DNA of 64,000 nt. Origin: an uncultured Candidatus Rokubacteria bacterium. GTDB lineage: Bacteria > Methylomirabilota > Methylomirabilia > Rokubacteriales > DASRDR01. The stretch lies in the NCBI GenBank assembly GCA_963826115.1, contig CAWGVS010000012.1, positions 416,001 through 480,000 of the forward strand, written 5' to 3'. Shown here piece by piece: positions 54,765 to 58,077 of this stretch; position 1 is the first letter of the stretch, and the number at the start of each line of letters is the position of its first letter. The translations under genes and the position numbers were made by a program. The notes beneath the pieces are model-generated. The model had not been told where the DNA came from, did not search any database, and saw only the letters and a list, made by a program, of their open reading frames with translations.

Positions 54765-55511
54765 CTAGACCGTGAACTCCGCCACCACGGGGTTGTGGTC
54801 GCTCAGCCCCGCCCAGCGCGAGCCGGTGACCACCCGGCAGGACGCGAGGCGCGCGGCCCAGTCCCTGGGCACGAAGATGCCGTCGCAGTGGTACGGCGCG
54901 AGGCGGTCGGCGGTCCACCGGAGGGTCTGCGCGAGCGGGCGCCCGGGATTGGCGGCCTGCCAGCAGCTCACGAGGTCGAACTCCGCGGCCAGCCGGTCCA
55001 GGATCTCCCGCTCGCCGCGGCTCATCCGGATCCGCTCTCCCGGCTGGCGCTGGCCGACGACGACGTTGAAATCCCCACCCAGAACGAGATCCGCGTCGCC
55101 GCGCAGCGTCGCGATCCGGTCCAGGATCTGGTGGAGGGTCTGCACGTAGCCGCGCTCGCCGACCGGGCAGTGGATGCTGAACAGCCGGAGTGGGCGGCCG
55201 GCCGACCAGACATGGCCCTGGACCTCCGCGCCCACCACCCACCCGCCGAATCCGCGGACCAGGAGCCGGCGAGCGGGCGCGCCCCGGACCAGGACCGCGC
55301 TGCCCCAGCGACGCGAGGCCGCCGCCGCCCACAGGAGGGTGTCGGCCTCGCCGGCGCGGAACCGCTCGCCAGGCGAGTGCGCCGGCGCCCGGCACTCCTG
55401 CGCGAGGACGACGTCGGGGGCGAGACGCGCCTGGACGCGCGACCAGTGGCCGCACCGGGCGGCGCTGCCACCGCTCAGGAAGTTGTAGGCCACGACGCGG
55501 AAGGACGCCAC
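54765..55511 (-). CDS. Endonuclease/exonuclease/phosphatase (EEP) family protein
   Basis: YN, DVVLAQE, SIH, GGDFN, DGIF, SDHNPV. Confidence 0.87.
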   Translation of the reverse strand: MASFRVVAYNFLSGGSAARCGHWSRVQARLAPDVVLAQECRAPAHSPGERFRAGEADTLLWAAAASRRWGSAVLVRGAPARRLLVRGFGGWVVGAEVQGHVWSAGRPLRLFSIHCPVGERGYVQTLHQILDRIATLRGDADLVLGGDFNVVVGQRQPGERIRMSRGEREILDRLAAEFDLVSCWQAANPGRPLAQTLRWTADRLAPYHCDGIFVPRDWAARLASCRVVTGSRWAGLSDHNPVVAEFTV

Positions 55512-55536
55512 GTGGGCGACCGGCGCGCCGGGGCGC

Positions 55537-56277
55537 CTAGACGAGCCGCGCCCGGATCCGGGCGCTCGCGAAGTCGACGACCATGACCATCAGGACGGTG
55601 ACGAGCAGCACGGTGGAGGCCGCGGGATAGTCGATCATCCGCAGGTAGGTCTGGAGATAGAGCCCAATCCCCCCGGCGCCGACGAAGCCCAGCACCGTCG
55701 CGGCCCGCACGTTGGACTCGAAGCGGTAGAGGACGTAGGAGAGAAACAGCGGGAGCACCTGGGGAAGGATGCCGAACCGCAGCACCTGCAGCCGCGTGGC
55801 CCCGGTCGCGCGAATCGCGTCCACGGGGCCGGGCTCAATGCCCTCGATCGTTTCCGAGTAGAGCTTCGCCAGGGACGTGGTGGTGTACGCGACCACCGCC
55901 AGCATGCCGGGGAAGGGGCCGAGGCCGACCGCCGCGACGAACAGCAGCGCGTAGACGAGGGTATCGATGCTGCGGAAAAAGTTCAGCGCCGTGCGCACGA
56001 CGTAGTACAGGGCCGGCGGCGCGACGTTACGCGCGGAGAGGAATCCGAGTGGCACCGCCAGCGCCGCCGCCACCCCGGTTCCCAGGAGCGCGATCTCGAT
56101 CGTGCCGACCGCCCCCCACAGGGCCGCGGGCAGGACGCGGAGGTCCGGCGGCACCATGCGCCGCACGAAGTCCCACATCCACGGGAGGCCCCGCACGAGC
56201 CGCGCGGGATTGGCGTCCGTGTGCCAGGCGATCGCCACGAGCAGGACGGCCGCGCCGAGCCACGCCACGCGCTTCAC
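55537..56277 (-). CDS. phnE: PhnE/PtxC-family ABC permease
   Basis: AVGLGPFPG, AKLYSETIE, YRFESNVRAATVLGFVGAGGIG. Confidence 0.9.
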   Translation of the reverse strand: MKRVAWLGAAVLLVAIAWHTDANPARLVRGLPWMWDFVRRMVPPDLRVLPAALWGAVGTIEIALLGTGVAAALAVPLGFLSARNVAPPALYYVVRTALNFFRSIDTLVYALLFVAAVGLGPFPGMLAVVAYTTTSLAKLYSETIEGIEPGPVDAIRATGATRLQVLRFGILPQVLPLFLSYVLYRFESNVRAATVLGFVGAGGIGLYLQTYLRMIDYPAASTVLLVTVLMVMVVDFASARIRARLV

Positions 56278-57017
56278 GCCGCCGCCTCCCCGTAGATCGC
56301 CTGGGCCACGGCCGGCGACACCGCCGAGGGCGGGCCGTCGAACACGACGCGCCCCGCCCGGAATCCCACGATTCGCGTGCCGTACTGAAGGGCCGTGTCG
56401 AGCTGGTGCTGGCTGACGACCAGCGTGAGGCGCCGCTCCCGGTTGATGCGCTCCAGGATGCCCATGATCGAGCCGGCGAGGGCCGGATCGAGGCTCGCGG
56501 TGGGCTCGTCGCCCAGGATCACCTGGGGCCCCTGGGCGAGGGCGCGCGCGATGGCCACGCGCTGCTGCTCGCCCCCCGAGAGCGTGTCGGCGCGGCGGGC
56601 GGCGAAGTCGGCGAGACCGACCTGCCCCAGGCATTCCCGGGCGAGGGCCCGGTCCCCCTGAGGGAAGCGCCCCACCAGGCTCGCCCACTCGGGGACGTAG
56701 CCGAGCCGGCCCGCGAGCACGTTGTCGAGAACGGACGCGCGCCGCACCAGGTTGAACTGCTGGAAGATCATGCCGATCCGGCGGCGGACCAGACGGAGCG
56801 CGCCCGGATCCGCCCCCGTGACCGGCTGGCCGGCGACGCGGACCGTCCCGGACGTGGGCTCGACGAGGCGATTGATGGCGCGGAGGAATGTCGTCTTGCC
56901 CGCTCCGCTGCGCCCGATGATCATGACGAACTCACCGGGCTCCACGACGAGGTCGACGCCGTAGAGCGCCACCGTGTCGGGCGGCAGCACGACCCGGAGG
57001 CCCCGCGTCTCGATCAT
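56274..57017 (-). CDS. phnC: PhnC-family ABC ATPase
   Basis: GRSGAGKT, IFQQFNLV, NVLAGRLG, LSGGEQQRV, DEPTASLDP. Confidence 0.92.
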   Translation of the reverse strand: MIETRGLRVVLPPDTVALYGVDLVVEPGEFVMIIGRSGAGKTTFLRAINRLVEPTSGTVRVAGQPVTGADPGALRLVRRRIGMIFQQFNLVRRASVLDNVLAGRLGYVPEWASLVGRFPQGDRALARECLGQVGLADFAARRADTLSGGEQQRVAIARALAQGPQVILGDEPTASLDPALAGSIMGILERINRERRLTLVVSQHQLDTALQYGTRIVGFRAGRVVFDGPPSAVSPAVAQAIYGEAAA

Positions 57018-57057
57018 GCGTCCCGCCGGCGTCGGCGCCGGGCCGGGCCGAGCGGGA

Positions 57058-57945
57058 TCAGCGCTTCGGACGCCAGCCGAGCAGGTCCATGGCCGCTCGG
57101 ACCGGCTCGTACTCGTGATCCTCCGCCGGCTCGAACCCGTCGATGTCGTAGAGCGCCTTGAGGAGCGGCGCGTAGGTCGGGCCCTTCATCGACAGGAGCG
57201 CCGCGCGCACCTTCGCGACCATCGCCGGGTCGAGCCCGTCGCGCGCGCAGATGCCGCCTTCCGGAATCGGCGCGCTCTCGGCGATCCAGTCGAGCTTGTC
57301 CCGCTGCGCCGGATCCTTCAGGTACTGCTCGCGCGCCTGGTCGAACGACGCGAAGGCGTCCACGTGGCCGTTGAGCAGGGCCAGGAGGCCCGCGTCGTGC
57401 GAGCCGGAGAACAGGAACTCCCTGAAGAACGTCTTGGGGTCCTTGTTCCGGACGAGCCCCTTCTCGATGAGCATCACCATCGGGTAGACGTAGCCCGACG
57501 TGCTGGTGGGGTCCACGAACGCGATCGTCTTGCCCCGGAGGTCCTCGAGGGTCTTGAGACCGGACTCCTTCCGGACGTAGATCCGCGAGGTGTACGACGT
57601 GTTCCCGTGCCACTGGTCCTTCGCCACGATCATGGCCTTCGCCTCGCGGTTGGCGAGGACGTAGCCCGCCGGGTGGACGAAGGCGAGGTCCGCCGTCCGA
57701 TTCCGGAGCGCCTCGACGACCGCGGCGTAGTCGGAGGCCACCGTCACCCGGATGGGCACGCCGACGAGCTTGCCGAGCGCCGCGCCGAACGCCTCCCCGG
57801 CCACCATGAGGTCGGTGGGCTTCTGAGACGGCGTGAGGGCGAGGTGGAGCGAGCCCTGGGCGACCGCGGGCGCCGCCCCGGCGAGGAGGACGGCCAGGAC
57901 CCCGGCCGTGAGGATGCTGAATCCAACGAGACGACGTCGCGACAT
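57058..57945 (-). CDS. phnD: PhnD/PtxB-family substrate-binding protein
   Basis: Signal peptide; SDYAAVVEAL, YTS, DPTSTSGY, SGSHD. Confidence 0.9.
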   Translation of the reverse strand: MSRRRLVGFSILTAGVLAVLLAGAAPAVAQGSLHLALTPSQKPTDLMVAGEAFGAALGKLVGVPIRVTVASDYAAVVEALRNRTADLAFVHPAGYVLANREAKAMIVAKDQWHGNTSYTSRIYVRKESGLKTLEDLRGKTIAFVDPTSTSGYVYPMVMLIEKGLVRNKDPKTFFREFLFSGSHDAGLLALLNGHVDAFASFDQAREQYLKDPAQRDKLDWIAESAPIPEGGICARDGLDPAMVAKVRAALLSMKGPTYAPLLKALYDIDGFEPAEDHEYEPVRAAMDLLGWRPKR

Positions 57946-57948
57946 ACG

Positions 57949-58040
57949 ATCCTCCCTGCGCTGGCATTACCCAGGTCAGGTTCCGGCGGTCGGCAGCCCC
58001 TTGCTGCCCTCTCAGCTCGCCTTCGAGCTCCCGCGATGCT
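57949..58040 (-). ncRNA. TPP (THI-box) riboswitch
   Basis: Minus strand reads GCGGGAGCTCG-AAGG-CGAGCTGAGA-GGGCAGC-AAGGG-GCTGCCGACCGC-CGGAACCTGA-CCTGGGTAATGCCAGCGCAGGGAGG; carries the CUGAGA, ACCUGA, UAAUGCCAGCG and AGGGA landmarks and pairable P2-P5. Confidence 0.92.
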
Positions 58041-58048
58041 CTGGCCGG

Positions 58049-58077
58049 AGTCTAGCGGGGGGTCGGCGGACCGTCAA
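58049..58077 (-). promoter_or_regulatory. sigma70 promoter driving the riboswitch-phnDCE transcript
   Basis: TTGACG-N17-TAGACT; predicted start site about 58042, immediately before the aptamer. Confidence 0.75.

Follow-up and report, generated by a model that had tools for sequence, protein, structure and literature searches.

A TPP riboswitch before a PhnCDE-type importer operon in Methylomirabilota: a candidate system for uptake of a thiamine-related compound

Why should a riboswitch for thiamine pyrophosphate (TPP) stand before an importer whose binding protein is named phosphonate-binding in public source annotations? The question is raised by a three-gene operon on the minus strand of a 64-kb stretch of DNA (the window, meaning the whole of the 64,000 nucleotides analysed) from an uncultured Candidatus Rokubacteria bacterium. 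The operon encodes a solute-binding protein (SBP) of the PhnD/PtxB family, a PhnC-type ATPase and a PhnE-type permease, and the riboswitch lies in its leader. TPP riboswitches are the most productive guide to thiamine transporters, and this system is best read as one that was drawn into the vitamin-B1 regulon in part of Methylomirabilota. Our tentative proposal is a TPP-repressed ATP-binding cassette (ABC) importer of the PhnCDE family (Transporter Classification 3.A.1.9) for a thiamine-related compound, with the pyrimidine half of the vitamin as its most likely cargo. The direction of regulation and the thiamine-related transport are what we infer from the sequence, and the exact ligand is a guess among candidates.

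The promoter, the aptamer and the operon behind them

The leader opens with a sigma-70-type promoter (Table 1), which an earlier reading made from the letters alone (the sequence-only reading) had called and which a consensus scan bears out. TTGACG occupies 58077-58072 and TAGACT 58054-58049, with a spacer of 17 nucleotides (nt). Two promoter-like sites were found between 54400 and 58400, against 0.1 expected from shuffles, and identical hexamers at identical spacing are visible upstream of the orthologs in two related loci (L024 and L029). About 5 nt separate the end of the -10 box from the first base matched by the aptamer model. The aptamer lies in the 5' leader of the SBP gene, on the same strand and behind the promoter that ends at 58049. 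Its match to RF00059 scores 65.6 bits against a gathering score of 54.3, covers the whole model (positions 1-105) and is the sole Rfam match at gathering score within the window; the complete THI-box aptamer of the sequence-only reading is thereby confirmed. CUGAGA, ACCUGA and GCGCAGGGA are all found in it. The motifs CUGAGA (J3/2), ACCUGA and GCG-AGGGA (P4/P5 arm), which we take to be those that contact the ligand, are invariant across the 14 aptamers of alignment A2 (14 Rfam-confirmed aptamers of 18 sequences).

The ribosome-binding site is part of the aptamer. In the Rfam alignment CAGG-GA-GGAUC makes up the 3' strand of P4, the junction and the 3' strand of P1, respectively, and the Shine-Dalgarno (SD) sequence AGGGAGG runs from this P4 strand through the joining GA into the beginning of the P1 strand. 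The ATG of the SBP gene stands at 57945-57943. The earlier placement of the SD in the 3' end of the aptamer was correct, but its spacing to the ATG is 5 nt rather than 6. There is no separate expression platform, as the aptamer's 3' end holds the ribosome-binding site and the RF00059 match crosses the start codon. On the model that we propose, the aptamer would fold when cellular TPP is high, and the SD, lying within the P4/junction/P1 3' segment of the folded aptamer, would be withheld from the ribosome, blocking translation of the SBP. When TPP is low, the binding protein, the ATPase and the permease would be made.

The three genes are tightly spaced, as had been noted: a gap of 40 nt separates phnD from phnC, and the GTG start of phnE overlaps the phnC stop codon (GTGA). 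All three products match their family profiles. One account of such an operon is an ordinary phosphorus scavenger that takes up phosphite, a simple organophosphate or a phosphonate of the alkyl or aminoalkyl type, and in which the riboswitch is an accident or a decaying relic that says nothing about the substrate. We judge this account improbable. It is favored by the ATPase and the permease, both of which exceed the NCBIfam equivalog cut-offs (Table 1). The SBP argues otherwise: with 214.8 bits for PF12974 and 204.4 bits for TIGR01098 (cut-off 112, passed), it falls below the PhnD equivalog TIGR03431 (185.1 bits against a cut-off of 261.1). The neighborhood argues in the same direction. The operon is flanked by genes for a malate synthase and a DnaE-like polymerase and by an unknown lipoprotein-like open reading frame (ORF). 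In agreement with what had been read from the sequence, no gene of phosphonate or phosphite use (C-P lyase, phosphonatase, ptxD) adjoins it. PhnJ was not found anywhere in the 99%-complete host genome (PhnX, PhnW, PhnZ and PtxD were not searched genome-wide). We know of no rationale for TPP control of phosphorus uptake, which counts against this account as well.

On either side of the operon stand two genes of less certain relevance. ORF4 begins 25 nt beyond phnE and encodes a protein of the endonuclease/exonuclease/phosphatase (EEP) family; its score with Exo_endo_phos (PF03372) is under the cut-off of 24.5 bits (Table 1), and its language-model features give 0.99 against EEP clusters. No terminator-like site is present on the minus strand between phnE and ORF4, and the two may be co-transcribed. 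An EEP homolog follows phnE in five of the 31 orthologous loci L016-L046 (L017, L018, L019, L022 and L025), and because of this patchy presence we reject the gene as a conserved member of the system, although it lies within the coordinates given by the sequence-only reading. On the other side, a 274-amino-acid (aa) ORF with no Pfam match (window:58074-58898, minus strand) has its end at the -35 box of the promoter; in 11 of the 14 closest loci (L016-L029) the operon is preceded by a homolog with 47-58% identity.

Recurrence of the aptamer in Methylomirabilota

A search for related loci returned 80. The gene order D-C-E is kept through L060 and is D-E-C in L061; L034, L046, L047 and L056 are short loci that break off ahead of phnE. 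Of the 17 closest loci, which have 72-91% identity, 12 carry a TPP aptamer at the Rfam gathering score immediately upstream, with 55-71 bits; L024, L026, L029, L031 and L032 gave none at that score. The position of the aptamer, in the same place in 12 of 17 orthologous loci, is beyond chance. At the gathering score, no TPP aptamer was found in the next 15 loci (L033-L047) or in 15 more distant loci of PhnD relatives (L048-L061 and L082); Rfam was not run on L062-L081 and L083-L095. A regular-expression pre-screen missed several true aptamers and served as a guide only.

Four loci of Methylomirabilales/NC10-like genomes, at 61-66% protein identity, present a second form of the element. The aptamers of L041, L044, L046 and L043 are below threshold (43.2, 43.8, 42.9 and 32.4 bits) and carry two long inserts. 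A GC-rich hairpin with a U-run comes after every one of them, which argues for a switch of the terminator type. In this clade, designated A below, folding of the aptamer would allow the intrinsic terminator downstream to form.

We extended the comparison to a phylum sample of 150 Methylomirabilota genomes together with the host genome of the window (151 in all). A match to the SBP at E<=1e-40 is present in 77 of the 151, with an identity of at least 53% in 75. The gene and 700 nt upstream were taken from 76 genomes and searched with a covariance model, R1, built from alignment A2. An earlier MAFFT alignment (A1) was dropped since the 5' halves of the thiD aptamer and of the long-insert clade-A aptamers were misaligned in it. 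R1 is biased to the Rokubacteria type and gives clade-A aptamers just 18-44 bits, so Rfam scores are cited alongside for them. An aptamer precedes the ortholog in 13 sampled genomes and in the host genome: seven of group f1 (the host included), the single genome of f7 (79 bits by Rfam) and six of six in f9. The weakest is that of G124, to which R1 gives 18.2 bits (Rfam gives 32.4 bits for the corresponding locus, L043), and the copy of G149 is truncated. With R1, no aptamer was found before G145, G107 or any of the 58 orthologs of f2 (E<0.01), nor at E<0.05 in 62 loci that include L048-L095, L026, L031-L040 and three of the twelve paralog loci of the host genome (L004-L015). The genome and locus series overlap (L097 and L024 give identical R1 matches) and are not additive. 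The genomes G029, G047, G058 and G101 enter the phylum-wide tallies, and none carries the riboswitch-controlled operon.

The protein tree places these occurrences in an informative order. The Methylomirabilota sequences form one clade with a support of 100. Clade A (riboswitch and terminator) branches first, then clade D (no riboswitch), then clade B (no riboswitch) together with clade C (riboswitch and SD occlusion), to which the window protein belongs. The riboswitch clades A and C are thus parted by the riboswitch-less B and D, so that the riboswitch was either ancestral and lost twice or gained twice. Both scenarios speak for a link of TPP to the transporter that was under selection. Whether a clade of homologs consistently carries the riboswitch had been put as a question by the sequence-only reading. 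The element does recur in two separate clades and tracks the absence of ThiC, but 61 of the 75 orthologs with at least 53% identity lack an intact copy.

Several leaders record decay. At L024:3911-4010 (the same feature as in L097) just the 3' half of the aptamer is left, behind the same promoter. L029 carries a diverged copy. At L043:3826-3907, in a ThiC-positive genome (G124), the conserved ACCUGA is changed to ACGUGA, and L042 retains the terminator-like hairpin with no aptamer match. These truncated or degenerate elements in close relatives (L024/G149, L029 and L043/G124) and the majority of orthologs that have no intact aptamer are what a phosphorus scavenger with a relic riboswitch would predict. 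Such a relic is hard to reconcile with an aptamer kept in 14 genomes, in two separate clades and with two expression platforms, and also with the finding that none of the 16 other PF12974 matches in the host genome coincides with a TPP riboswitch.

Other features of the orthologous loci deserve mention. The clade-A operons have a second tandem PF12974 gene between the first SBP gene and phnC, about 56% identical to the window protein (Table 1), and two tandem binding proteins may mean two related ligands. A DDE transposase gene directly follows phnE in one clade-A locus (L043:6666-8450). In another clade-A locus, which lacks the aptamer, a sub-threshold match of the group-II-intron type (34 bits; L045:61-131) lies upstream of the SBP gene. 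On the strand opposite to the clade-B orthologs, variants of the c-di-GMP-I-GGC riboswitch (RF03167, 70-77 bits) occur at distances of a few hundred nt to 2.5 kb upstream.

Thiamine genes of the hosts, the pocket and the candidate ligands

The host genome of the window (G000) comprises 6.24 Mb in 12 contigs and is an estimated ~99% complete; its closest relatives among public genomes are metagenome-assembled genomes (MAGs) labelled Candidatus Rokubacteria, Rokuibacteriota or Methylomirabilota. A whole-genome Rfam search found three TPP riboswitches in it: the window copy, one in the thiD-thiE leader and one before a CytX-type gene, a putative transporter of hydroxymethylpyrimidine (HMP). ThiD, ThiE, ThiG, ThiL and TenA are present, while genome searches of this 99%-complete MAG did not find ThiC, ThiM or thiamine pyrophosphokinase (TPK). 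With ThiG, ThiE and ThiD, synthesis of the thiazole half and coupling of the two halves are feasible; with ThiC missing, there is no pyrimidine half by the ThiC route. With ThiL present and TPK missing, thiamine monophosphate (TMP) would be usable, and free thiamine has no known TPK route. The ThiG copy beside thiD-thiE (G000:C5:1657866-1658595) matches its Pfam model as two pieces in different frames (59-247 and 2-61), pointing to a frameshift or a fault in the assembly; another ThiG copy, at C5:520694-521413, is intact.

The window aptamer is itself related to the CytX element. The two are identical in 71 of 89 columns, as close as the window aptamer is to orthologous aptamers elsewhere, which favors a local duplication of the CytX leader in clade C. 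With R1, the CytX aptamer scores 103.6 bits and the thiD aptamer 42.6 bits.

Most of the genomes that carry the aptamer share the lack of ThiC. By a hand tally across the sampled genomes, ThiC was not found in 11 of the 14 aptamer-bearing genomes (G000, G095, G108, G065, G096, G045, G079, G053, G089, G048 and G051); among the 61 genomes with an ortholog that lacks an intact aptamer, ThiC was found in 49. The remainder of the pathway is largely kept in the 18 genomes of f1, f7 and f9: ThiE and ThiG are present in all 18, ThiD in 15, TenA in 12 and CytX in eight, and TPK exceeds its cut-off in none. In f9, CytX is missing from the six genomes that have the operon and is present, along with ThiC, in the one that does not (G054). 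In the five f9 genomes that lack both ThiC and CytX, the PhnDCE-type operon is the sole transporter among the TPP matches followed, the genes behind the third match having been inspected directly in G051 and G079 only. The f9 matches precede the PhnDCE-type operon, the thi operon and an operon of dehydrogenase, LuxE-like and LuxC-like genes, except that G053 has no third match; the thi operon was assigned to its TPP match by proximity to ThiE and ThiG. In G045 (f1), which also has neither ThiC nor CytX, all three TPP matches were followed, and the PhnDCE-type operon is again the sole transporter; the others are the thi operon and a sub-threshold match (38 bits) before a B12/radical-SAM gene, which we set aside as probably due to chance.

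This pattern bears directly on what the importer carries. Since ThiG is always present, thiazole forms are unlikely, and thiazole phosphate, one of the ligands named by the sequence-only reading, is among them, with ThiG in 18 of 18 genomes. Free thiamine is unlikely because there is no TPK. A strong rival to the pyrimidine half is intact phosphorylated thiamine (TMP or TPP), which would be taken up in the manner of ThiBPQ and, as TMP, finished to TPP by ThiL; we think it rather unlikely on balance. ThiL is present in the host genome and TPK reaches its cut-off in none of the 18 genomes, so that phosphorylated thiamine would be usable where free thiamine would not, and TPP control is typical of thiamine importers according to the portion of PMC10881298 available to us. 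Import of the finished vitamin would, however, make ThiD, ThiE and ThiG dispensable, and they are retained in 15, 18 and 18 of the 18 genomes, respectively. It also leaves unexplained why the pattern tracks the loss of ThiC specifically, why the operon and CytX, the putative HMP transporter, are complementary in f9, and why the window aptamer is a near copy of the CytX aptamer.

The structure predicted for the SBP provides insight into the chemical nature of the ligand. By sequence, its closest solved relatives are phosphite-binding PtxB proteins (best 5lv1, E=1.6e-28). The AlphaFold2 model has a mean pLDDT (predicted local distance difference test) of 90.8, and its Foldseek neighbors are ArrX, PtxB, HtxB and AioX at the top, together with XAC2383, PhnD, GpxB and a bacterial sterol binder. 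The top 40 fold matches are all PhnD-family proteins, and the query-normalised TM-scores to ligand-bound PtxB and PhnD are 0.75-0.79. As the structure listing shows, ArrX was solved with acetate or malonate bound, so carboxylates can occupy such sites in crystals, and one XAC2383 structure (5ub7) was deposited with ATP bound. That a PhnD-like protein can be deposited with so large a phosphate compound is a point for TMP or TPP.

In Te_PtxB, the oxyanion is held by Y55, Y100, S130-T131-S132 and H160, and the cap residue Y208, itself held by D22, shuts out ligands larger than phosphite (Bisson et al., PMC5700983, as far as its accessible text goes). A HMMER alignment to PtxB indicates that the oxyanion ligands are kept in the SBP (Y73, Y118, S148-T149-S150 and H183), while the cap Y208 is replaced by G230 and its partner D22 by S40. 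By a MAFFT alignment to E. coli PhnD, D205 corresponds to G230 and E177 to Q203, beside an invariant D202; the mature-numbering offset of 26 was inferred from the STS motif, and the alignment may be off by one near 202-203. The roles of the pocket residues in E. coli PhnD and PtxB are those given in the accessible parts of PMC5700983 and PMC12718374. In 72 Methylomirabilota sequences, little or no variation is seen at the head residues and at W112, F201, D202 and E229, the last two being invariant in all four clades, and position 230 is always Gly, Ala or Ser. Head-residue deviations are limited to one Phe73 in clade A and to Phe118 throughout clade B. An outgroup at 35-41% identity has His at position 230 and no H183, which argues for a different specificity class.

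Gly230 in place of the PtxB cap would open room for a bulky tail. From these residues we would expect the ligand to join a large tail to a head that resembles phosphate or is at any rate anionic, and the two acidic residues could serve to bind an amine or a cationic ring. The intact head is what a phosphorus scavenger would also keep, but the loss of the Tyr cap, with Gly and Gln at the D205 and E177 columns of E. coli PhnD, is not. TMP and TPP fit this pocket well, as the head is intact, the missing cap leaves room for a large tail, and a cationic thiazolium or an aminopyrimidine could lie opposite the acidic E229 and D202. The near-strict retention of the six oxyanion residues has further use in weighing an analogue of ThiXYZ, in which HMP or an uncharged breakdown product of the pyrimidine, 4-amino-5-aminomethyl-2-methylpyrimidine (AmMP) or its N-formyl derivative (FAMP), would be imported and processed by TenA and ThiD. 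An anionic ligand is what these residues argue for. Moreover, TenA was not found in four of the five ThiC-less f9 genomes that bear the operon, nor in G011, and because it is mostly missing in clade A, AmMP and FAMP are unlikely there. TenA is nonetheless present in the host genome and in eight of the nine other f1 genomes, ThiXYZ is a known TPP-controlled ABC importer of pyrimidine vitamers (PMC10881298, in part available), and the SBP has a partial NMT1/THI5 match (PF09084; 24.2 bits, residues 62-145). That match spans profile positions 20-100, about 80 of 216, and is dwarfed by the 214.8 bits of PF12974. We regard the ThiXYZ analogue as very improbable, slightly more so than the phosphorus scavenger.

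Taken together, the ThiC pattern, the complementarity with CytX, the CytX-like aptamer and the retention of ThiD, ThiE and ThiG favor the pyrimidine branch, and the pocket residues favor an anionic form such as HMP phosphate (HMP-P). A pyrimidine-branch compound in anionic form is accordingly the ligand on which we settle for the present, without counting it as probable in itself; what likelihood is left beyond the rivals is spread over other ligands. The phosphorylated B1 compound suggested by the sequence-only reading fares well as to its charge, which the retained oxyanion residues and the loss of the cap at Gly230 would fit, but the genomic context favors the pyrimidine half over intact thiamine phosphates. 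In our proposal, the SBP would grip a thiamine-related molecule by its anionic, phosphate-like head and accommodate its bulky heterocyclic tail; the importer would supply the pyrimidine half, e.g., HMP-P or another anionic HMP derivative; and ThiD, ThiE and ThiL would convert it to TPP in the ThiC-less host.

A number of observations weigh against this proposal. TMP and TPP fit the pocket argument and ThiL equally well. We know of no environmental measurement of HMP-P. The operon is without a thiamine enzyme gene. P1 of the window's own aptamer has two non-canonical pairs, and the folding energy of the leader has a z-score of 0.63, which is uninformative in sequence with 67% G+C. The orthologs that lack an intact riboswitch reside mostly in ThiC-positive genomes, and a more general substrate may apply to the transporter family, given this riboswitch-less majority. 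The riboswitch-less clades do differ in the pocket (N110 and F118 in B; Q113, L207 and H208 in D), but the changes are few. ThiC is present in three of the 14 aptamer-bearing genomes (G116, G011 and G124). The ThiC association comes from some two to three lineages, in which related genomes are non-independent; gene absences come from MAGs that are 82-99% complete; and the pathway tally did not take in a THI5-type HMP-P synthase or every known thiamine transporter.

A wider reading, which we hold doubtful, would make the operon one part of an undescribed TPP regulon of Methylomirabilota that scavenges anionic fragments of vitamin B1. The PhnD-type SBP, its head site kept and its cap removed, would take a charged pyrimidine vitamer and render ThiC dispensable; HMP-P is one candidate, and 4-amino-2-methylpyrimidine-5-carboxylate is another in Methylomirabilales-like genomes. 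Methylomirabilales-like genomes without ThiC and CytX do have a strong TPP riboswitch (66-69 bits) before a three-gene operon of a Zn-dependent alcohol dehydrogenase, a LuxE-like acyl ligase and a LuxC-like acyl reductase, the Lux matches being weak (56-88 bits; Table 1). This operon may salvage an oxidised thiamine fragment by an unusual carboxylate-to-alcohol reduction under TPP control, and within the wider regulon it would reduce the carboxylate to HMP. A literature search on such a TPP-controlled operon gave nothing relevant. For the lineage of the window's host, carboxylate reduction was rejected, as tblastn found no LuxE or LuxC homolog in its genome, and the idea is kept for clade A only.

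Table 1 Coordinates of the operon, its leader and related features. Positions in the first seven rows are those of the window.
Feature	Location	Strand	Evidence
Sigma-70-type promoter, TTGACG-17 nt-TAGACT	58049..58077	minus	9/12 consensus positions
TPP riboswitch aptamer (THI element), RF00059	57936..58044	minus	65.6 bits, E=1.2e-10
Shine-Dalgarno AGGGAGG	57951..57957	minus	sequence read against Rfam structure line
PhnD/PtxB-family SBP, 295 aa, N-terminal signal-like helix	57058..57945	minus	PF12974, 1.6e-63
PhnC-type ABC ATPase, 247 aa	56274..57017	minus	TIGR02315, 291.5 bits (cut-off 266.1); PF00005
PhnE-type ABC permease	55537..56277	minus	TIGR01097, 281.8 bits (cut-off 216.7); PF00528
ORF4, EEP family, 248 aa	54765..55511	minus	PF03372, 22.5 bits
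Second tandem PF12974 gene	L041:4897-5847; G011:C192:6988-7839; G089:C16:7171-8022; G051:C34:36364-37227		
c-di-GMP-I-GGC riboswitch variants	L035:3679-3761; L036:2102-2184; L037:1517-1600; L038:1418-1500	minus of each locus	RF03167
Dehydrogenase/Lux-like TPP operon	L173:129-4166 (G051:C204); L174:312-4199 (G079:C168)		
TPP riboswitch of dehydrogenase/Lux-like type	G089:C127:24-137; G048:C512:651-764		

Comparison with known systems

PhnCDE had been said to be absent from the transporters known under TPP riboswitches, and this stands: a 2024 list of B1 transporters names ThiB, ThiT, ThiY, ThiV, CytX, YkoF, ThiPerm and Omr1, with no PhnD-family system in the portion of the source available (PMC10881298). 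In openly readable full texts we found no link of the TPP riboswitch or thiamine to PhnD, PhnCDE or PF12974; an earlier mention in subscription papers or supplements is possible. The co-occurrence of thiamine and PhnD-type terms in PMC7266159, PMC9870897, PMC7793946 and PMC11477304 is incidental in the accessible parts of those papers. If the system functions as proposed, it would add a transporter family to vitamin-B1 metabolism and correct a systematic mis-annotation that inflates the inferred use of phosphonates in abundant uncultured soil Rokubacteria/Methylomirabilota. Its hosts would be pyrimidine auxotrophs relying on neighbors for a possibly phosphorylated vitamer, which is relevant to cultivation. 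Were the wider regulon real, B1 vitamers of a new class would be exchanged within soil and groundwater communities, and the PhnD family would have its first ligand related to a vitamin.

In its overall design the system resembles ThiXYZ, an ABC importer with a periplasmic binding protein behind a TPP riboswitch, which serves pyrimidine salvage where HMP is needed (PMC10881298, as far as available). The SBP described here, however, belongs to PF12974 and is not a full-length ThiY of the NMT1/THI5 family, and the ATPase and permease are PhnC and PhnE equivalogs. The head site is retained, suggesting an anionic ligand, and TenA is missing in several of the genomes that host the PhnDCE-type operon.

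ThiBPQ is commonly under TPP control. It shares with the present system a binding-protein-dependent import of vitamin B1 that includes phosphorylated forms, given as "B1 (/TMP/TDP) transport" (TDP, thiamine diphosphate) in the consulted part of PMC10881298. It differs in both its ABC family and its binding-protein family; no ThiB family is among the NCBIfam matches of the SBP, although no search aimed at the ThiB profile was made. The pathway pattern of the hosts here points to a need for pyrimidine, not to full auxotrophy.

With PhnCDE of E. coli and PtxABC of cyanobacteria and Pseudomonas, the system has in common the three gene families, the fold and the oxyanion residues Tyr, Tyr, Ser-Thr-Ser and His. 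The differences are in regulation, neighbors and pocket. A TPP riboswitch takes the place of phosphate-starvation control, and there is no C-P lyase, phosphonatase or ptxD beside the operon. PtxB Tyr208 or PhnD Asp205 is replaced by Gly230, and PhnD Glu177 by Gln203, in a protein that is under the PhnD equivalog cut-off.

A precedent for the pocket is GpxB, a PhnD-family protein that binds the phosphate esters glycerol 1- and 3-phosphate (G1P/G3P), with the phosphate head kept, the aromatic cap lost and the pocket enlarged for a phosphate ester (PMC12718374, in the part accessible). The window SBP appears, from its residues, to have undergone a change of this type, and the re-tuning of the PhnD scaffold would be a natural example of it, head kept and cap lost, in parallel to GpxB. 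GpxB nevertheless differs in that Arg223 and Thr247 hold the glycerol hydroxyls, according to the accessible text, whereas the SBP has Gln203 (or Asp202), Gly230 and Glu229 near those positions. GpxB ranks 42 in the fold search, and it serves carbon and phosphorus nutrition, with no riboswitch mentioned in the available part of PMC12718374.

Last, the genomic setting is that of ThiV in Pelagibacterales and of CytX: a transporter stands beside a TPP riboswitch in bacteria that lack thiC and retain thiE and thiG (PMC10881298, in part available). ThiV and CytX are secondary carriers for uncharged HMP, whereas the present system is a primary ABC importer with an SBP apparently made for an anionic ligand. 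Import of a vitamin precursor under TPP control is familiar; it is the transporter family that is new to vitamin B1, in an association so far confined to one phylum.

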